DNA of 64,000 bases, from the NCBI GenBank assembly GCA_965226065.1, contig OZ245332.1:809651-873650 (forward strand), given 5' to 3'. Source of the stretch: Spirochaetia bacterium. Lineage in GTDB: Bacteria; Spirochaetota; Spirochaetia; WTKD01; G963693115. Of the stretch, positions 53,677-62,270 are shown piece by piece; the stretch's first letter is position 1, and every line of letters starts with the position of its first letter. The position numbers were made by a program, and so were the translations under genes. Below the pieces are notes generated by a model that saw nothing but the letters and a program-made list of their open reading frames with translations, was not told the origin of the DNA and did not search any database.

Positions 53677-54408
53677 TTAGAATATCTGTGCTTTGCTAGA
53701 AAGATAATTGAGAATGCGATTGTAATCATCATAGTAATCTATCTCACTCCAAAACGAATTGCCAATATCCATTACATGAACAGGTAACTCATCGTTATAC
53801 ACAATTGCAGATTCCCACCATGTATTGTAGTCTTTTTGTTCAAGTAATAATGCCACTTGTTGTGCGACAATTTGCACATGTTCCTTTGCTACTTTCACCA
53901 CATCAAGACTTTCTGCCTGAGACTCTTTAATATCTTTTCCATATGCAATTATTTTATTATCAGATGAGTACCTAACACGCACATCTGCAACTTCGGCTCT
54001 ATGAGAGTCTATAAGCAATAAGGGGCTCTCATGTGTTTTTGTACATATTTGCTCGTATATCTCATGTGATAAGAAAGTATCGCCATTGATAATAAGCATA
54101 TCATCATTAGCATCAAACTCAGATAAGGCAAACCACAATGATCCTAAAGAATTCATAAGATAATAAAAGGGATTATGATAGTGCTTTACCTGCTGACCAA
54201 CAACATTGATAATATCACGATAGTGATACCCGGTGACTATACTGATATCTGATACCTGATATTTCTGAAGCATCTTTATACTATATTCAATAAGCGGTAT
54301 AGTTTCTGTTTTATCCTTGTTGTACAAGGGCAGCAAACTCTTAGGTGTCTTACCAATGTTCTTTGCTATTCTTTCCCCTATACCTGCGACCAGTATGATT
54401 GCTTTCAT
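53677..54408 (-). CDS. Sugar/alcohol-phosphate nucleotidyltransferase, LicC-like (e.g. choline-phosphate cytidylyltransferase family)
   Basis: N-terminus MKAIILVAGIGERIAKNIGKTPKSLLPL matches the NTP-transferase G-x-G-x-R loop and resembles LicC (MKAIILAAGLGTRL...PK.L). Length is 243 aa. Confidence 0.55.
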   Translation of the reverse strand: MKAIILVAGIGERIAKNIGKTPKSLLPLYNKDKTETIPLIEYSIKMLQKYQVSDISIVTGYHYRDIINVVGQQVKHYHNPFYYLMNSLGSLWFALSEFDANDDMLIINGDTFLSHEIYEQICTKTHESPLLLIDSHRAEVADVRVRYSSDNKIIAYGKDIKESQAESLDVVKVAKEHVQIVAQQVALLLEQKDYNTWWESAIVYNDELPVHVMDIGNSFWSEIDYYDDYNRILNYLSSKAQIF

Positions 54409-55739
54409 ATATCTCCTTGTAATTCGATTAGTGTATTAGCTGCGACAATTCCCGCATGCCCAAAATTATAAAGGCTGCTATCGCGTAAAGATGGTATAAC
54501 ACTTTTTTCCTGATACCTTGAAAGTAACCTTTTCACATGCAAAGGCAGTTCATGAATATGCTCTGGTTTTACGTTATAAGCTATTTCTGAAAAATGCGTT
54601 TGCTCCCACGATGGCCAATCGCAATCTCTTCCTTCCATACCCAAATAATCATACGATGACGCGTCACTTATAACAATTGGTTTTTCAAAAACAAATGCGT
54701 AATCGAAGATAATGCCGCTTCTATCCGATATCATAAGCGAAGATCGTGAAAGTGCAGGAAAGTTATCTGCATTCGTATCCCACTCTATAGTATCAAATGT
54801 TTGAAGATCAGATTTTAATTGTTCTATCATGTGTTTTTCGCTGATATAACTTTGAGGATGAAGACGTAGAATGATACGATATCCCTCTTCTAACAACATG
54901 CGCAATGGCGCACTGCCGTAACAACTGACAAAGCTAACATCTCCCCATGTAGGAGCTACAAGAATCGTGTTCTTTTCCTCAGGAAATTCAAAAGACAGTT
55001 CTTGTTTCTTTTTTACAAGTTCATCCATATATGTACAGCCAACATTGATAATACGTTTCTGCGTAAGTTTTCTTTTAGACTCTATTTTTCTCAGAGAGCG
55101 TTCTTGATGCACGCCGCTTACCATAACTGTATCGTAAAAATCAAAAGAAAATACTTTATAAAGATGTATGTCTGTTGGCGCGTGCATTACATGTACATAC
55201 TGCTTTACGCCCTTAGATCTACGTATCTGCAAGACGTCAAGTCCGGGAGTAGTCAGTACGCATACTTCTGCCTCAAGTAAATTGAGATAAGTAAACGCTT
55301 TGTTGCCGGTGCCAATATATCGCGCTGTATAACACACAGGAACATTCGTGTCGATACTGCGAGATAAGTAGCTAAGGCCAGGATCCTGTTCGTCTGATGT
55401 CAGATATTCAAACGATATCTTTTTATCTATCAAAACATCAATAATAGGTTTGAAACAAAACCAATACTGTCTACCTTCGCAATAGAACACGAATGCAGGC
55501 TTATCTTTTATCTTTGTTTTCAAACGAAATAATCTAAAGATACTTGTATGAAGCTTGTACCATATTGTCTTTAAAGAAAATAATATTGCCGACGCTATTC
55601 CTAGTAATGCAGCGAGCAACATGCTTCCCGTACCGGGATCAAGATACGCATAAAGCGGATGCGTATACACAAGTGCAAATGCAAGAACTATGAATAATTT
55701 TTTATAAGAAAAATTATTCTTATGTTTTCCTTGTATCAC
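54405..55739 (-). CDS. CDP-glycerol glycerophosphotransferase (TagB/TagF family)
   Basis: N-terminal TM segment. TagF-type motifs ..NTILVAPTWGD.. and ..IILRLHPQSY... Its stop overlaps the start of the downstream gene. Confidence 0.65.
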   Translation of the reverse strand: MIQGKHKNNFSYKKLFIVLAFALVYTHPLYAYLDPGTGSMLLAALLGIASAILFSLKTIWYKLHTSIFRLFRLKTKIKDKPAFVFYCEGRQYWFCFKPIIDVLIDKKISFEYLTSDEQDPGLSYLSRSIDTNVPVCYTARYIGTGNKAFTYLNLLEAEVCVLTTPGLDVLQIRRSKGVKQYVHVMHAPTDIHLYKVFSFDFYDTVMVSGVHQERSLRKIESKRKLTQKRIINVGCTYMDELVKKKQELSFEFPEEKNTILVAPTWGDVSFVSCYGSAPLRMLLEEGYRIILRLHPQSYISEKHMIEQLKSDLQTFDTIEWDTNADNFPALSRSSLMISDRSGIIFDYAFVFEKPIVISDASSYDYLGMEGRDCDWPSWEQTHFSEIAYNVKPEHIHELPLHVKRLLSRYQEKSVIPSLRDSSLYNFGHAGIVAANTLIELQGDI

Positions 55740-58700
55740 TTCACACGTCTCCAGTTTTCTTTTTTAAAAATACTATCAGTTACTTCATAGTGCACTTTAA
55801 TGGTAAATTTTTTATCACTCACAAGATCTCGCCAACCATAAAATGTAGTATGATATATTGGCAAAGTACGTACAGGTGCAGGATTTATTCGAAGTGGTGA
55901 TTTTGGAATTCCATTACAATTCTCCAGTCCATCGCACATAACCGCAGGAAGATCGACATTACTTACCAACCGCTCATCAGTTTTGAACATTCCACGACTA
56001 TGAAAATCTTTTACCATAAACAGAATGTGTGCCCGCGAAAAATTCTTTGTGTTAGTTTGTCCAAAAAAATCAAGTGCAATTCCGTTACCATTCATTTCAT
56101 CTTCAATTCTTTCAAATCCATGGTCAGATATTATGATGATTTTTGTGTTATCATAAATACCATTTTCTTTCAGCCATGTCACCCACCTTCCAATGGCACG
56201 CATAGCACAGCGCGCTGAATAGTACGAATTCTTCCCTGCCATGTTATCGCCAGCGCTAGGGTCAGGAAATTCATCTTTTACAAGAGTGCAAGATGAATCT
56301 AGTCCGTATGGCATATGGGTAATATCATTATGAAAAAACTTAAAGGTATTTTTATCACTACCAACATACGATAAATTCACAAGAGAATCTATAAAAGACC
56401 ACTGTTCCAACGCTGCTTTATATCCCCAAAAGTTTTTTAACATTCGAGAATTAAATATATTCCATACGCCATCGTCATATATAAATCGTTTCATAAAAAA
56501 CGGAAATGCACGAATAAATCCTACTGCTGCAAGTAAATACGATTGCCGTAGAACAGCCATGTTTTGTGCCTTATTGCTTTGTACCTTATTGTTTTTAATC
56601 CAATATCCTACCGTACTAATATCGGGTGGAGATAAACATGATACATCGCGTTCTTCTATCAATTTGCATTGATCACCATCTCCCACATAATAAATAAGCC
56701 CGCTTGTAGCAACTGCATAATTGTGCGATTGATATAACTCAAACATAGCATCGTATGCACGAGCAAATTTTTCTGCTAAATTTATTCCGTCCATCTTATT
56801 GATATTTTCAGGAGTATAATCCCAACCGCTCATCATTGCAGCTTTACTCGTTGCAGTGTAAGTTGAAATACTTAGTGCATTCGGATACCACGTAAAACCA
56901 TTATAGATACGCTTTAGCTCAGGCTCAGATGCTAAAATAGGCTTCATAAGTCCACCTGAAAACATATCGAGCAGAAATACTACAATATTTTTACCATCTT
57001 TTGAAAACTCAAATATGTCACCATACACTTCTTTAGATGTATCAGATGTAGAGAGCTTCGTGTTTTTCGTCTTTTGCGATAACGATGCCTGAAAGTTTGA
57101 GTTATAATACCACATCTCTGTACTTGCAAATCGTAGCAGTGTAAATATAGTACATCCTATAATACAAAGTAAAAATGCATTCTGTTTCTTGGAAATATAA
57201 TGTATTACCAATAACAATACGCTAATGAGTGCTATACCTTCAACAATAAATAAAGCTGTTTTAAGCACTATGCTGCGTGGATTTACCAAGATAAAGTTAT
57301 CTACAGCCCCATAGTCAAACGGTAATAAATACGTATATGCAAACACCGTAATAGCAATGGTATAAAACACCGCGCTCACATAGTGTTTGTACGCTTTAGG
57401 CGTAAGTAAATAGAGAAGAAAAAGCAGTACCGCAACAACAAGAGTAAATAAAAACAAAACACCCTGCAATGCTTCAAGCGGTTTTCCTATAGCACTAGGA
57501 TCGCTTGTATATACTTCTGTAGGAAGTGCTATGAGTAAGAGAAATGGAATAAAAATCACAGTACATATGACAATATACCTATACACGGAACTATGAGGCT
57601 TCTTTACATAAGAAATAGACGTAATAGGCACGCGTAAATAACAGCGCAACCACAGAAACAACATGGCGTGTAGCAGTATCAATACGAAGCAAATAGCAAT
57701 CTTGCGTATGGTAAAAGGAAGATCAATAGAATGTACAGGAGTATACATGTTATAGATAACTACTGCCACGCAAATCATCAGTCCTAACAGAACGCTATAT
57801 TTTGTTAGCATGTACCAGAGCTTGTACTTCGGCGTATGTTTTAAGAACATAATAAATAAGAACACCGTTTGTACAAATCCAAGAAATGCAGTGGTATTAA
57901 GCAATTGAAGCGGAGTAGTTCCCCTCGCCCTATTACTATTAAAAAGAAAATAGGCAGCAAACAAATATAATATAAGCAATTCTATTGCTATTACGATTAT
58001 TCTCACTCTCTGTTTATTACGTAAAAACTTCGCGTACGATGCCTTTAATAGTTGAAATGTTGATGGCACACTCTGTACATTTTTCTTCTTATGTTTCATA
58101 AGTAGTAGTACATTTTTAAGCCATGAATACGCATTATTCACCGTCCAATAAAGCACCAATGCCGATGGAGCATTATACAGCAATATGAGAAACACAAACG
58201 CTAATCCCCAAATATGAACAAGTGCCTTAGGATTCGTTCGTCTTGTATACATATCTGCAGCAAGAAGATTAACCGCCGTCATAACAAAAGGCAATACATT
58301 TATCGGTACATGCCCTATAGTAAATAAAGCATCGGGCTGTAGTAAATCGGAAACGATGAAGAAAGGTATTTGTTTGAATAATTCATAATGCCCAAGCAAC
58401 TGATATGCAGCGATAAAAAACGGAACCTGAACAACTAATCCACCAAGTGAACGCAAGCCCATAATAGGATGATATTGATGAATGCGATAGAGTGTTCGCA
58501 TATACATAAAGCGCGTCATACCGCTAAATGCCGTATTAAATTCATCAATCTTATGCTGCATACGATTACGAACACGCAACTCTTGAGACTGTAATAACTC
58601 CGCAAGCATATATGCAGGAATAAGTATTGTATTAATTACAAAGCTCATCACGATAATAGCAATGCCATAGCTCTGAGTATAACCATACACTGCTTCAAGT

Positions 58701-58753
58701 ATGGTACGCATAAGCCACGTAATTGGATACAGTATTGATTCAAATATATTCAT
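55736..58753 (-). CDS. Fusion protein: YidC/Oxa1-type membrane insertase domain + polytopic membrane region + C-terminal LtaS-like sulfatase/phosphoglycerol-transferase domain (1005 aa)
   Basis: The first ~230 aa carry the YidC/SpoIIIJ landmarks (YGIAIIVMSFVINTILIPA; LRSLGGLVVQVPFFIAAYQLL; FFIVSDLLQPD; APSALVLYWTVNNAYSWLKN). About 10 further TM helices follow. The C-terminal ~350 aa have the alkaline-phosphatase/sulfatase fold with ISDHGFE. Confidence 0.6.
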   Translation of the reverse strand: MNIFESILYPITWLMRTILEAVYGYTQSYGIAIIVMSFVINTILIPAYMLAELLQSQELRVRNRMQHKIDEFNTAFSGMTRFMYMRTLYRIHQYHPIMGLRSLGGLVVQVPFFIAAYQLLGHYELFKQIPFFIVSDLLQPDALFTIGHVPINVLPFVMTAVNLLAADMYTRRTNPKALVHIWGLAFVFLILLYNAPSALVLYWTVNNAYSWLKNVLLLMKHKKKNVQSVPSTFQLLKASYAKFLRNKQRVRIIVIAIELLILYLFAAYFLFNSNRARGTTPLQLLNTTAFLGFVQTVFLFIMFLKHTPKYKLWYMLTKYSVLLGLMICVAVVIYNMYTPVHSIDLPFTIRKIAICFVLILLHAMLFLWLRCYLRVPITSISYVKKPHSSVYRYIVICTVIFIPFLLLIALPTEVYTSDPSAIGKPLEALQGVLFLFTLVVAVLLFLLYLLTPKAYKHYVSAVFYTIAITVFAYTYLLPFDYGAVDNFILVNPRSIVLKTALFIVEGIALISVLLLVIHYISKKQNAFLLCIIGCTIFTLLRFASTEMWYYNSNFQASLSQKTKNTKLSTSDTSKEVYGDIFEFSKDGKNIVVFLLDMFSGGLMKPILASEPELKRIYNGFTWYPNALSISTYTATSKAAMMSGWDYTPENINKMDGINLAEKFARAYDAMFELYQSHNYAVATSGLIYYVGDGDQCKLIEERDVSCLSPPDISTVGYWIKNNKVQSNKAQNMAVLRQSYLLAAVGFIRAFPFFMKRFIYDDGVWNIFNSRMLKNFWGYKAALEQWSFIDSLVNLSYVGSDKNTFKFFHNDITHMPYGLDSSCTLVKDEFPDPSAGDNMAGKNSYYSARCAMRAIGRWVTWLKENGIYDNTKIIIISDHGFERIEDEMNGNGIALDFFGQTNTKNFSRAHILFMVKDFHSRGMFKTDERLVSNVDLPAVMCDGLENCNGIPKSPLRINPAPVRTLPIYHTTFYGWRDLVSDKKFTIKVHYEVTDSIFKKENWRRVK

Positions 58754-59056
58754 GTTATGATTATGTCGTGTATATCAACACACCTTCACTTTTTGTTCAT
58801 TCATTATTGTTACGTTGTATAATTATTATATTTCTTAAGACAGTATACCAATATTACGAATTATACTAAATAATAACAAAACAGCCAGAAATACCACGGT
58901 AATTAGCACATAGAAATCTGGTGAACAAAGCACCAATAACAAACAAATGAGAAAAAAATACTCTATATTTTCTAGCTAAAAATGCTATTCTAAACTTATA
59001 GCTTTCAGACTATACCGTCCATTCATAAAAATTAAGGACAGCTGTAGGAGTATCTT

Positions 59057-60685
59057 ATGAAAAAATCAATTATTACACAAATCATGTACGTAGTGCTTTT
59101 TATAGCACTCGTTTCTTCATGTGGTTTTGAGAAGAAAACATGGCAGAAAGATAAAGAATATCATATCACGGTGCTACATACCAATGATCACCATGGAAGA
59201 TTTTGGAAAAACCGCAATGGTGAATATGGTATGGCAGCGAGAAAAACATTGATTGACCGCATTAGGAATGAAGTAGAAGCAAACAATAGCATTGTACTAC
59301 TACTTTCTGGAGGCGATATAAATACCGGGGTACCCGAAAGCGACTTACAAGATGCCGAACCTGATTTTAGAGGCATGAGTGCAATTGGATACGATGCTAT
59401 GGCACTTGGTAATCATGAATTTGATAACCCATTAGAAGTACTTCAAAAACAAGAAACGTGGGCAAATTTTCCATTTCTCTCGGCAAATATTTACGACAAA
59501 ACAACAGGAAAAAGACTCTTTAGTCCGTACAAAATATTTCAAAAGCAAGACTTACGCATAGCAGTAGTAGGACTTACCACACAAGACACTGCTGTTATCG
59601 GTAACCCACAGTTCTTACACAACATTGAATTTCGCGATCCTATCGCAGAATCAACGCCTCTTCTAAATACATTAAAAACCAAAGCCGATATCATTATTGC
59701 GGTAACTCATATGGGACACTACCCTGATGCAAACCACAAAACAAATGCACCCGGTGATGTATCGCTGGCAAGAAAAACAAAAGGATATAACGCAATCATC
59801 GGCGGACACTCACAAGCGGTTGTTTGTATAACAGAAGAAAACAAGATCGTAGAGCGCTATCTACCGAACCAAGAATGCACCCCCGATTATCAAAATGGCA
59901 GCTATATTATGCAAGCAGGAGAATGGGGAAAATATGTAGGACGCGCTGACTTCACTTTCAAAAATGGTGATTTTACACTTCTACGCTATATGCTTATTCC
60001 CGTAAACTTGAAAAAAACGATAAAAGAAAATGGCAAAAAAGTGCGAGTGCTTATCGGAGATGAAATAACAGAAGATGCCTCAATGCTTCAGTTATTACGC
60101 CCATTTCAAGAAAAAGGGTCAGAAAACCTCAACGTGAAAATTGCTCAGACCAACGGAAAACTTGAAGGCGATAGAGCAATAGTAAGGAGCAAGCCTACAA
60201 ATCTTGGAACTATCATTGCCTATGCGCAAATGCAATCAGTAGGTGCTGACATCGCTGTCATAAATAGCGGTGGCATCCGTGCAAGCATTGAGAAAGGCGA
60301 CATTACCTACAAAGATGTACTAACCGTACAACCCTTTGGTAACACCGTTACGTACGTTGATTTAGGTGGCAGTGATTTACAAGAGTATCTTACTACCATA
60401 GCAAACATTCCTGAAGGTACCGGCGGATATGCGCAGTTTGCAGGACTTGCCTTTACTATGGTAGAGGAAAAACTCACCATCTCCATAAACAACAAACCCT
60501 TAGATGAAAATGCCACATATCGGCTTGCAATTAATTCTTATATCGCGTCTGGAGGCGATAAATACCCTATCCTTACAGAAAAACCAAGCTTTGTTGATAG
60601 CGGATACGTCGATGCTGAAGTACTAAAGTCGTACATGGAAGAAAAAGGTATCATAGACGCACATGGATATACTCCCGCAAGATAA
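59057..60685 (+). CDS. Bifunctional metallophosphatase / 5'-nucleotidase (UshA family) lipoprotein
   Basis: Lipobox LVSSC. Metallophosphatase motifs HTNDHHG, GGD and GNHEFD. C-terminal nucleotidase domain. Confidence 0.8.
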   Translation: MKKSIITQIMYVVLFIALVSSCGFEKKTWQKDKEYHITVLHTNDHHGRFWKNRNGEYGMAARKTLIDRIRNEVEANNSIVLLLSGGDINTGVPESDLQDAEPDFRGMSAIGYDAMALGNHEFDNPLEVLQKQETWANFPFLSANIYDKTTGKRLFSPYKIFQKQDLRIAVVGLTTQDTAVIGNPQFLHNIEFRDPIAESTPLLNTLKTKADIIIAVTHMGHYPDANHKTNAPGDVSLARKTKGYNAIIGGHSQAVVCITEENKIVERYLPNQECTPDYQNGSYIMQAGEWGKYVGRADFTFKNGDFTLLRYMLIPVNLKKTIKENGKKVRVLIGDEITEDASMLQLLRPFQEKGSENLNVKIAQTNGKLEGDRAIVRSKPTNLGTIIAYAQMQSVGADIAVINSGGIRASIEKGDITYKDVLTVQPFGNTVTYVDLGGSDLQEYLTTIANIPEGTGGYAQFAGLAFTMVEEKLTISINNKPLDENATYRLAINSYIASGGDKYPILTEKPSFVDSGYVDAEVLKSYMEEKGIIDAHGYTPAR

Positions 60686-60695
60686 ATAAAACTTC

Positions 60696-60735
60696 AGTTC
60701 TGTACGATGTGCAACATTCAAAGTTTGAATGTTGC
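60696..60735. terminator. Perfect 20-bp-arm palindrome, likely bidirectional terminator
   Basis: TACGATGTGCAACATTCAAAG/TTTGAATGTTGCACATCGTA lies between two convergent genes. Confidence 0.6.
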
Positions 60736-60749
60736 ACATCGTACGTTAC

Positions 60750-62270
60750 TTACTGTAAAAACAACGGTATTAAGGTCATTGCCGTTGCTGTTACCAAAAT
60801 TACAGATACGATATTCAAGATAATTCCCACACATGCCATATCACGTATTGTTATCTTTCCCGTACTAAATACAATTGCATTAGGTGGCGTTGCTACGGGA
60901 AACATAAATGCACACGAAGCAGCAATTGCAGCAGTTGCCATAATCACCACAGGACTAAAATTTAACGTACTTGCAAACGCTGCCATAATCGGCATCAAGA
61001 GTGTAGCAGATGCAGTATTAGACGTAATCTCTGTAAGAAAGGTAACCAACAATACTATAGACGCCACCACAATAATGATAGGAGCACCTGCAAGTCCTGT
61101 TAATTGTTCTCCTATCCACAAACTGAGCTCTGATTTCGTAAAAGCTTTTGCTAGTGAAAATCCACCTCCAAACAATAGCACAATACCCCACGGAAGTTTT
61201 ACCGCCGAAGCCCAATCCATAATAAAAAGTCCTTGCTCATTTCGTGTATCTTTACTTACAGGAATAACAAACAAAAGCACAGCTCCTATCAATGCAATTA
61301 CCGAGTCATTAACCTTTGGCAATAAAGGTTGAATAAGCCATTTGCGAGTAATCCACGATAGTGCAGTAATAATGAACACTATCAATACCATTGTTTCATT
61401 TGCACTTATAGGTCCTAGCTCTTTTCTTTTTTGCGCAATAACTACATCTGCTCCGGGAATATCCTTTGAACTAAGCTTAAATATTTTAACGAACAATATC
61501 CAGACTAAAAAGATAAATACCACCGCTAAAGGAACACCTATCATCATCCAATTGATAAAATTTAGTTCATATTGAAGCAATTCTTTCAAAGCTCCTGCTA
61601 ATACTAAATTAGGAGGAGTACCTATAATAGTACCCATTCCCCCTATTGAAGCAGCATATGCTATCCCCAGCATAATTGCCGTACCAATACGCTTATGTGA
61701 AAGCGATGTCTCCGATACTTCTGATTGAGAGTATTCTTTATGAATTAAATTTGGAAATTGAGAGATAACCGCAGAAGCAATAGGCAACATCATCATAGTA
61801 GTCGCAGTATTAGATATCCACATTGATACAAAACCCGTAGCAAGCATAAAGCCTAAGAGTATGCGTCTTGAACTCGTACCTAATGCTGCAAGAATTGCCC
61901 ACGCAATTCTCTTGTGAACATTCCATCGCTCTAATGCAAGAGCAATAACAAATCCACCCAAGAACAAGAAAATCAAATGACTTGAATATCCACCTGCAGC
62001 TTCCGCAATACTACTAAAGCCCACAAGAGGTAACATTATTAAAGGAAGCAATGCCGTTACTGCGATAGGAACTGCTTCAGTAATCCACCACACTACCATC
62101 ATCAAAGCAACCGCCGCTACCTTCGTTGCTTCAGGAGTCATTCCTGCAGGTGAGGGCAGTATCAACATGAGCATGCACAGTACAGGACCTGTAATAATAA
62201 AAATGTATTTTCTCCCAAGCGCATGTTTCATGCCTTGAGAAGTACCATGTGATGAAGTAATACTTTCCAT
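60750..62270 (-). CDS. Divalent anion:Na+ symporter (DASS/SLC13-type) permease
   Basis: 506 aa, about 14 TM segments, ArsB/NhaD-superfamily architecture with a central hydrophilic loop. Confidence 0.65.
   Translation of the reverse strand: MESITSSHGTSQGMKHALGRKYIFIITGPVLCMLMLILPSPAGMTPEATKVAAVALMMVVWWITEAVPIAVTALLPLIMLPLVGFSSIAEAAGGYSSHLIFLFLGGFVIALALERWNVHKRIAWAILAALGTSSRRILLGFMLATGFVSMWISNTATTMMMLPIASAVISQFPNLIHKEYSQSEVSETSLSHKRIGTAIMLGIAYAASIGGMGTIIGTPPNLVLAGALKELLQYELNFINWMMIGVPLAVVFIFLVWILFVKIFKLSSKDIPGADVVIAQKRKELGPISANETMVLIVFIITALSWITRKWLIQPLLPKVNDSVIALIGAVLLFVIPVSKDTRNEQGLFIMDWASAVKLPWGIVLLFGGGFSLAKAFTKSELSLWIGEQLTGLAGAPIIIVVASIVLLVTFLTEITSNTASATLLMPIMAAFASTLNFSPVVIMATAAIAASCAFMFPVATPPNAIVFSTGKITIRDMACVGIILNIVSVILVTATAMTLIPLFLQ

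Follow-up and report, generated by a model that had tools for sequence, protein, structure and literature searches.

A spirochaete operon encoding a YidC-like/alkaline-phosphatase-fold fusion protein, a TagF-like protein and a LicC/PntC-like nucleotidyltransferase, with a possible role in head-group decoration of the cell envelope

We analysed a 64,000-nucleotide stretch of DNA (hereafter, the window) from a Spirochaetia bacterium (assembly GCA_965226065.1, contig OZ245332.1, positions 809,651 to 873,650), which carries a cluster of three minus-strand genes. The first gene (55736-58753, ATG start) encodes a protein of 1005 aa, here called FUS, in which a YidC-like domain and a series of transmembrane (TM) helices are fused to an alkaline-phosphatase (AP)-fold domain. 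It is followed by a TagF-like gene (54405-55739, GTG start, 444 aa) and by a gene for a LicC/PntC-like nucleotidyltransferase (53677-54408, ATG start, 243 aa). Both junctions are formed by 4-bp overlaps, at 55736-55739 between FUS and the TagF-like gene and at 54405-54408 between the latter and the nucleotidyltransferase gene, and open reading frame (ORF) calling placed all three genes exactly where an earlier note, made on this DNA from its letters, had put them. A look-up for an exact copy of the FUS protein gave no match; a nearly identical contig (L001) shows the same gene order and encodes a FUS variant (P0001) with 99% identity. Two further loci, L085 and L086, possess syntenic operons with the same three-gene order and 35-45% identity; these are the closest relatives of the operon, with 35-36% identity to the window for FUS and 41-45% for the nucleotidyltransferase. 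Since the gene order is repeated in L001, L085 and L086, the operon genes are real and conserved, not chance ORFs.

The domain assignments of the earlier note held in hidden Markov model (HMM) searches for all three proteins. In FUS, the Pfam model 60KD_IMP was matched at aa 29-216 with 62 bits (curated cut-off 35) over profile positions 1-160 of 163, and the Sulfatase model at aa 589-890 with 36.4 bits (curated cut-off 25); Phosphodiest was also matched, and the ISDHGFE motif read from the sequence is present. Glyphos_transf (PF04464) scored 41.9 bits against a cut-off of 22.1 in the 444-aa protein, where it covers aa 215-360 and thus the C-terminal half only, and the APTWGD and LHPQSY motifs are in place. 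The 243-aa protein matched NTP_transf_3 (PF12804) with 38.2 bits (cut-off 27).

An AlphaFold 2 (AF2) model of FUS, built from a 105-sequence alignment (predicted local distance difference test score, pLDDT, 79; predicted template modelling score 0.75), displays 14 TM helices, five in the YidC-like core and nine after it. The TM region described by the earlier note is therefore there, but its estimate of around ten helices behind the YidC-like part has to be corrected to nine. As this odd number of helices follows the cytoplasmic end of the YidC-like core, the C-terminal domain should be extracytoplasmic. From the N-terminus, the protein consists of four parts, all on the minus strand. The YidC/Oxa1-fold domain (aa 1-221; 58091-58753) comprises an amphipathic N-terminal helix, five TM helices and a cytoplasmic helical hairpin. 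It is followed by a variable membrane region (aa 222-387; 57593-58090) with approximately four weakly conserved TM helices, predicted at residues 247-273, 281-306, 312-340 and 347-374 with pLDDT values of 43-66; mean identity there is about 10% and most homologues are gapped. Directly N-terminal to the periplasmic domain lies a five-TM module (aa 388-570; 57044-57592), with helices at 388-417, 426-450, 453-476, 499-521 and 525-567 and pLDDT mostly at 79-93. The layout of this module resembles the TM domains of EptA, LtaS and PbgA, and the Foldseek alignments of FUS to full-length EptA (5FGN), PbgA (6XLP/6V8Q) and MCR-1 (9NWW) extend over 630-708 columns. The last part is the periplasmic alkaline-phosphatase/sulfatase-fold domain (aa 575-1005; 55739-57031). 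Mean identity along FUS is highest in the YidC-like part (38.5%), reaches 28% in the AP domain and amounts to 10-15% in the other membrane regions.

The YidC-like domain aligns as a whole to YidC2 of Bacillus halodurans (3WO6/3WO7) and to Escherichia coli YidC, with the HMMER alignment covering residues 17-238 of 3WO7 and the family profile matching YidC chains in the PDB at E-values of 1e-11 to 1e-13. In the AF2 model, where pLDDT is mostly 85-97 (74-83 at the ends), the five-TM core is reproduced and TM1 is followed by a cytoplasmic helical hairpin; the core helices lie at 29-43, 45-75, 78-91, 96-121, 154-170, 175-191 and 197-221 (pLDDT 81-97). FUS also shares the YidC signature motifs PFFIAAY, DL..PD, LPxxMT and LYWTxNN. 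The YidC landmarks reported earlier thus stand as to the fold and these motifs, but not as to the groove arginine (R72 of B. halodurans YidC2, R366 of E. coli YidC), which in FUS is replaced by Asn41 (codon 58631-58633), nor as to the TIGR03592 (yidC_oxa1_cterm) model, for which FUS scores 70.4 against a cut-off of 84.3. In 121 database homologues the residue in the groove-Arg column is Asn (77), Ser (29), Thr (13) or Gly (2), never Arg or Lys; in 113 locus-derived sequences it is Asn (44), Thr (35), Ser (28), Ala (3) or, once each, Ile, Cys and Gln, again with no Arg or Lys. The NCBIfam YidC equivalog models reach only 11-58 bits on FUS, with cut-offs of 282-891. On these comparisons, the domain is genuine in fold but not an orthodox YidC; that the groove arginine has been lost in every member argues for an altered function.

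In the AP-fold domain, residues D596, T633, D877 and H878 are invariant throughout the FUS family, and H813 is either invariant or at least 98% conserved. D596, H813 and the DH pair (codons 56120-56125) align, in the domain profile, to the metal-site motifs of sulfatases. T633 (codon 56855-56857) lies 37 residues after D596, a distance which we take to be the nucleophile spacing of LtaS (T300) and EptA (T280). We found no formylglycine motif of the CxPxR/SxPxR type in the FUS AP-fold domain. The best structural matches obtained with Foldseek (E about 1e-7) were EptA (5FGN), LtaS (2W8D/4UOR), PbgA (6XLP) and MCR-1 (9NWW); further ones included sulfatases and the phosphonate monoester hydrolase 2W8S. 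Because a Thr occurs at the nucleophile spacing, the formylglycine motif is missing and the metal site is conserved, the domain resembles the phosphoryl transferases of the LtaS/EptA type and not a sulfatase. Sequence comparison relates it to the named enzymes at the superfamily level only, with no close relative among them: the LtaS equivalog NF053595 scores 16.4 (cut-off 970) and the choline sulfatase model 24.6 (cut-off 433).

The TagF-like protein yielded a confident AF2 model (pLDDT 89.5) with a GT-B-like TagF fold, whose best fold match in the PDB is TagF (3L7K, E 2.8e-13); a sequence search against the PDB gave no match, and 3L7K was reached by fold search. The TagF-like family forms a separate clade of more than 1,308 members, and its 120 best matches, which come from across phyla, are 40-47% identical to the window protein. 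On the TarF equivalog NF041712, the window protein scores 19.8 (cut-off 550). Its catalytic domain is placed in the cytoplasm because that is where the nucleotide donor is found. The N-terminal membrane anchor (aa 1-70; 55530-55739, minus strand) consists, in this order, of a signal-peptide-like segment ending in PLYA (an AxA-type site), the stretch YLDPGTGSML, a TM helix and a flank rich in K and R, with AF2 helices at 12-24 and 35-70. In a 104-sequence alignment of the TagF-like family, Y32, D34, P35, G38 and S39 of the YLDPG(T/S)GSML motif are invariant, and conservation in this part equals or exceeds that of the catalytic core; we know of no description of this motif. The succession of a signal peptide, an 8-residue acidic loop, a TM helix and a basic flank resembles the hairpin of M13 procoat, the classic YidC-only substrate.

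To determine the genetic context of FUS genes, ORFs were called and clustered in 80 related loci. We found that a homologue of the TagF-like gene adjoins FUS on the same strand in 50 of them, and in 29 of the 36 loci with at least 3 kb of sequence on both sides. These adjacent homologues (phmmer E-values of 1e-76 to 1e-124) are conserved far better than FUS itself. The association of a TagF-like gene with a 60KD_IMP gene also occurs in Photobacterium, Nitrospira and Treponema denticola. How tightly the YidC-like domain and the TagF-like gene are coupled had escaped the earlier note. Two to four tandem FUS paralogues often stand beside one TagF-like gene, and in T. denticola (CP076571.1; L084, 3346-19713) five FUS genes (894-953 aa) and two TagF-like genes form one block, flanked by GT25/GT2 genes and by Caps_synth/GT4/epimerase genes. 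A split organization was detected in a metagenome-assembled genome of the Leptospirales (L021, 1437-5259), where a YidC-like protein of 230 aa, a TagF-like protein of 430 aa and a TM plus AP-domain protein of 597 aa are encoded separately; in L058 and L074, the TagF-like gene is followed by a YidC-like-only gene (221-229 aa). From the split and partial forms it follows that the constant core of the module is the TagF-like protein with the YidC-like domain, and that the AP-type transferase is a frequent but separable part. Upstream of the TagF-like gene at L085 (6168-8984) we observed a second FUS copy broken into five fragments (67, 168, 93, 85 and 503 aa), apparently a pseudogene, which suggests a turnover of FUS paralogues.

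The further neighbours of these genes are in many cases those of phosphonate pathways. A CTP_transf_like-PEP_mutase fusion occurs in 24 of the 80 loci and a thiamine pyrophosphate enzyme resembling phosphonopyruvate decarboxylase in 16, accompanied either by Fe-ADH, the predicted route to 2-hydroxyethylphosphonate (HEP), or by a protein of about 610 aa combining NTP_transf_3 with an aminotransferase. The latter architecture is that of Tde1415, the characterised PntC-AEPT of T. denticola (PMC6697681). Other loci differ. In Bulleidia (L016, 2268-4157), a 629-aa fusion of a winged helix-turn-helix (wHTH) domain, NTP_transf_3 and a choline/ethanolamine kinase is encoded two genes upstream of a TagF-like-FUS-FUS array, and shorter wHTH plus NTP_transf proteins are encoded beside the FUS/TagF-like pair in L066 and near it in L014. 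In Photobacterium (L082, 1204-9347), a stand-alone CTP_transf_like cytidylyltransferase and an ABC importer (binding protein, ATPase and fused permease) directly precede FUS and the TagF-like gene, with no ppm in view, and this set resembles a pathway for salvaging a head group taken up from outside. In Nitrospira (L083, 8001-12292), a class-I methyltransferase gene lies between the TagF-like and YidC-like genes, a hint that the head group of this lineage may be methylated. Taken by its gene neighbours, the module appears to accept different small head groups activated with cytidine mono- or diphosphate (CMP/CDP), phosphonates most frequently.

Residues 1-236 of the 243-aa protein of the window align to residues 26-250 of Streptococcus pneumoniae LicC (1JYK, E 3.4e-6), and its counterparts at the same operon position are 45% (L085) and 41% (L086) identical. 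It is a nucleotidyltransferase of the LicC/PntC family, probably a cytidylyltransferase. The pair of residues that has been linked to substrate choice is D105/D192 in LicC and E104/E196 in Tde-PntC (Rice et al. 2019, PMC6697681). At these positions, the window enzyme and its orthologues in L085 and L086 possess Asn and Glu (N108 and E198 in the window), E198 corresponding to the PntC-type Glu at the second position. At L085, genes for Ppd, CT-Ppm and Aminotran_5 are situated directly downstream of the orthologous operon; in the organism of L086 and L087, the same three are found on the same contig some 15-20 kb from it. Our first guess for the head group in the window organism is a compound similar to 2-aminoethylphosphonate (AEP), made elsewhere in the genome or salvaged; our second is a phosphocholine- or phosphoethanolamine-like one. 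No TagD-type (CTP_transf_like) glycerol-3-phosphate cytidylyltransferase and no TarI/TarJ is encoded in the operon. The glycerol-phosphate head group that the earlier note had considered does not fit: a TagD-type gene is missing, and the neighbours elsewhere make AEP or HEP, or include the choline-kinase fusion.

The FUS family is large. A profile search of 1.84 billion cluster representatives (clustered at 50% identity) returned 3,771 at E<=1e-30, of which the best 150 are all full-length; a word-indexed search gave at least 221 homologues, mostly of about 900 aa, and at least 534 FUS loci were confirmed in GTDB species representatives. The members come from Spirochaetota, Firmicutes, Bacteroidota, Proteobacteria, Nitrospirota and Verrucomicrobia. 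Among spirochaetes they were detected in Treponema, Brachyspira, Sphaerochaeta and Leptospirales, and elsewhere in Clostridia, Bulleidia, Sutterella, Helicobacter, Desulfovibrionaceae, Neptunomonas, Bacteroidales and Verrucomicrobia. The fusion is therefore no peculiarity of this spirochaete or of diderm spirochaetes, as the family counts thousands of members across many phyla, monoderms included. The impression of the earlier note, that the fusion matches no described family, was borne out: our full-text literature searches found no description of it, and the papers listed for YidC together with LtaS contain no report of such a fusion. Homologues that bear a name are called 'YidC/Oxa1 family membrane protein insertase' or 'membrane protein insertase YidC'. 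The phosphonate papers, which were searched by term, make no mention of YidC-like or TagF-like genes or of the fusion in phosphonate clusters; the nearest published remark concerns 'multiple sulfatases' in an AEP cluster family of Selenomonas (PMC8942020). Apparently, this is a large module of known folds that has gone undescribed.

We give about an even chance to the explanation that the operon is a three-step module for adding a CMP/CDP-activated head group, a small phospho- or phosphono-alcohol, to glycoconjugates of the envelope. The general idea of the earlier note, i.e., the transfer of a nucleotide-activated alcohol-phosphate onto an envelope glycolipid or polymer, would then be right in kind, as the domains and the operon structure on which it was built have held. 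In the first step, the 243-aa enzyme would, by analogy with its family, join cytidine triphosphate and a head-group phosphate or phosphonate into a CDP- or CMP-activated donor, most likely CMP-2-aminoethylphosphonate or one of the phosphocholine/phosphoethanolamine type, not CDP-glycerol. In the second, the anchored TagF-fold enzyme would move the head group to a membrane-bound acceptor at the cytoplasmic face and set CMP free. In the third, the periplasmic domain of FUS would take the head group off the lipid-linked intermediate as a covalent phospho(no)-Thr633, with D596, H813, D877 and H878 as the metal site, and would pass it on to the final acceptor, a glycan, glycolipid or lipoprotein glycan of the cell envelope; LtaS, EptA and GacH serve as the model for this Thr and metal-site chemistry. 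The YidC-like domain would couple both faces of the membrane, either with its groove clamping the procoat-like hairpin of the partner protein, or by conducting the lipid-linked head group in a scramblase-like manner, or both. Tandem FUS paralogues in other genomes would each serve a different acceptor.

Such a relay accounts for the coupling of the genes, for the split forms, for the occurrence of one TagF-like gene with many FUS genes and for the conservation gradient along FUS. A donor side held in common and an acceptor side that varies fit both the combination of one TagF-like gene with two to four FUS paralogues and the higher identity of the YidC-like domain relative to the AP domain. 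Published work on the phosphonyl-tailoring pathway describes its transfer steps after activation as enigmatic (PMC6697681). We suggest, tentatively and with less confidence than in the decoration itself, that the TagF-like, YidC-like and AP-fold components are the missing transfer-and-export machinery of phosphonyl tailoring and of phosphocholine-type decorations, in which a repurposed YidC fold, by head-group conduction or as an anchor clamp, couples a cytoplasmic and a periplasmic transferase.

Several points weigh against the relay. Enzymes of the TagF family normally modify lipid-linked glycans directly in the cytoplasm, so that no second, periplasmic transfer is needed, and FUS may act independently of the product of the TagF-like protein. 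About one fifth of the well-flanked FUS loci have no adjacent TagF-like gene. The putative nucleophile T633 is assigned from invariance and spacing, and N108 of the nucleotidyltransferase corresponds neither to the Asp of LicC nor to the Glu of PntC. As for the supply of the donor, no ppm, ppd, AEP transaminase or PhpC was found in the 64-kb window or over a further 10 kb outside it, and six-frame searches of the window were equally negative for Fe-ADH, choline kinase, a phosphonate-type ABC importer and CTP_transf_like; the search for these genes reached 53 kb on one side of the operon and 10 kb on the other. No choline-kinase-like ORF was seen in the window, in which licB and licD were not specifically searched for. 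Finally, among the best 120 homologues of the L085 PEP mutase, a list that ends at about 62% identity, none lay on the contigs of this organism.

The strongest competitor, which we regard as possible and only somewhat less likely than the relay, holds that the operon encodes two independent decorations and a dedicated insertase. The TagF-like enzyme would add the CDP/CMP-activated head group to an undecaprenyl-linked glycan in the cytoplasm, in the manner of LicD, TarF or capsule TagF-like enzymes, FUS would separately draw on bulk phosphatidylglycerol (PG) or phosphatidylethanolamine (PE), and the YidC-like domain, as a specialised insertase or chaperone, would insert the hairpin of the TagF-like protein or the 14-TM body of FUS itself, with no small-molecule role. 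The donors of LtaS, EptA and GacH are indeed ordinary phospholipids, and the closest solved relatives of the AP domain are transferases that use them. The procoat-like N-terminus of the TagF-like protein points in the same direction, as does the conservation of all canonical YidC motifs except the arginine, R366 of E. coli being dispensable for some substrates; L058 and L074 moreover combine a TagF-like with a YidC-like-only gene and lack an adjoining AP-domain gene. This explanation leaves it unclear, however, why an insertase should be fused to an AP-type transferase in thousands of proteins and why each FUS paralogue beside a single TagF-like gene should carry a YidC-like domain of its own. 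One would expect the housekeeping YidC to insert hairpins of this kind in any case, and the universal loss of the groove arginine speaks for a changed function.

We consider it unlikely that the operon makes a teichoic-acid-like polymer, with the TagF-like enzyme polymerising CDP-glycerol or CDP-ribitol and an LtaS-like FUS extending or anchoring the poly(alditol-phosphate) on a glycolipid. The Glyphos_transf match, the TagF polymerase as best fold match and the resemblance of the AP domain to LtaS would all suit it, but the Pfam model covers only the C-terminal half of the TagF-like protein, and both the TarF and the LtaS equivalogs stay far below their cut-offs. The operon offers no TagD-type or TarI/TarJ gene, its nucleotidyltransferase is LicC-like over the full length, and the conserved neighbours elsewhere make AEP or HEP, of which AEP has no hydroxyl for polymerisation. 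Still less probable is a scavenging or remodelling hydrolase, i.e., a periplasmic sulfatase or phosphonate/phosphate monoester hydrolase with unrelated neighbours. The Pfam name Sulfatase and the Foldseek and profile matches to true sulfatases and to 2W8S would support such a role; they are opposed by the invariant Thr at the nucleophile spacing and the absent formylglycine motif, by the tethering of the domain to 14 TM helices, as in lipid-using transferases, by the translational coupling through 4-bp overlaps and by a synteny with biosynthetic, not catabolic, genes. That FUS is the housekeeping YidC of the organism with an accessory periplasmic domain, as the public names imply, is hardly credible: 60KD_IMP is above its cut-off, but the groove Arg is absent in all members, TIGR03592 and the YidC equivalogs fall short, up to five paralogues per genome lie in glycan loci, and the family has a patchy phyletic spread, its location within accessory clusters being suggestive of horizontal gene transfer. 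Housekeeping YidC, true sulfatase and poly(glycerol-phosphate) synthesis were rejected, each on the counterevidence specific to it.

Around the operon, a candidate sigma-70-like promoter (TTGGTA-18-AATAAT; 58822-58851, minus strand) was noted in the 303-bp gap upstream of FUS. It is a weak candidate, as shuffled sequence would be expected to contain just as many promoter-like sites as the region does; neither the promoter nor the terminator scan of the operon region rose above the shuffled expectation. Scanned against Rfam, the operon with its flanking sequence yielded sub-threshold chance matches only. Divergently from the operon runs a gene (59057-60685, plus strand) for a UshA-like lipoprotein with Metallophos and 5_nucleotid_C domains and a lipobox-like N-terminus. 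Enzymes of the UshA type hydrolyse nucleotide-diphosphate alcohols and sugars. The adjacency of this gene is probably coincidental, since it is not kept beside the orthologous operons at L085 and L086. A 207-aa ORF with a GTG start (60709-61332, plus strand), antisense within a Na_sulph_symp/CitMHS transporter gene (60750-62270, minus strand), is probably a spurious shadow ORF.

If the proposed decoration module proves true, it provides candidate enzymes for the transfer of CMP-activated AEP or HEP to surface glycans and lipids. Around half of the bacterial phosphonate pathways are thought to end in the tailoring of surface glycans or lipids (PMC8942020, PMC6697681). In addition, recruitment of a YidC/Oxa1 fold to a pathway for small molecules or glycolipids would be seen for the first time. 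This would bear on the scrambling of lipids by insertases, which has recently been found in vitro for YidC and others (PMC11047089). FUS genes are found in host-associated bacteria, such as T. denticola with its five paralogues, Brachyspira, Helicobacter and Sutterella. Decoration of the cell surface with phosphocholine or phosphonates is known to modulate the interaction with the host. For thousands of proteins, the annotation 'membrane protein insertase YidC' is probably a mis-description.

With regard to known systems, FUS shares with LtaS, GacH, EptA (MCR-1) and PbgA a C-terminal extracytoplasmic AP fold placed after a TM module, an Asp/His metal site, the DH motif and the Thr. It differs from them by its YidC-like domain and by 14 TM helices as opposed to 5-11; moreover, these enzymes have no obligatory CDP/CMP-dependent partner in the cytoplasm, and bulk PG or PE supplies the head groups that they transfer. 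Compared with the insertases YidC, Oxa1 and Alb3, the FUS domain has lost the groove Arg, is fused to or encoded beside envelope-decoration enzymes and occurs in several copies per genome.

In the Lic system (LicA/B/C/D) and the proposed Pnt pathway, a LicC/PntC cytidylyltransferase activates a small head group for surface glycans, as we propose here. The Pnt core of Ppm, Ppd and PntC/AEPT is present in related loci but absent from the window, which also lacks licA, and the transferase components of the window operon are of the TagF fold and FUS type, not LicD. In the literature that we searched, no enzymes are identified for the Pnt transfer steps. With TagF, TarF, TagB and the TagF-like capsule polymerases (8QOY), the TagF-like protein has in common the GT-B-like fold, motifs of the PTWG/HPQS type and the presumed use of a CDP-activated alcohol phosphate; in contrast to them, it possesses its own anchor of signal peptide, YLDPGTGSML and TM helix and is not accompanied by a gene for CDP-glycerol supply.

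The logic of the proposed relay is analogous to that of the GtrA/GtrB/GtrV and ArnC/ArnEF/ArnT systems, with which the window module shares no homology. In these systems, a lipid carrier is loaded by a transferase on the cytoplasmic side and flipped by a small membrane protein, after which a large polytopic enzyme carries out the transfer outside. That the YidC-like domain might do the flipping is a hypothesis. The Gtr and Arn systems move sugars from undecaprenyl phosphate, whereas the module encoded in the window would move phospho(no)-alcohol head groups.

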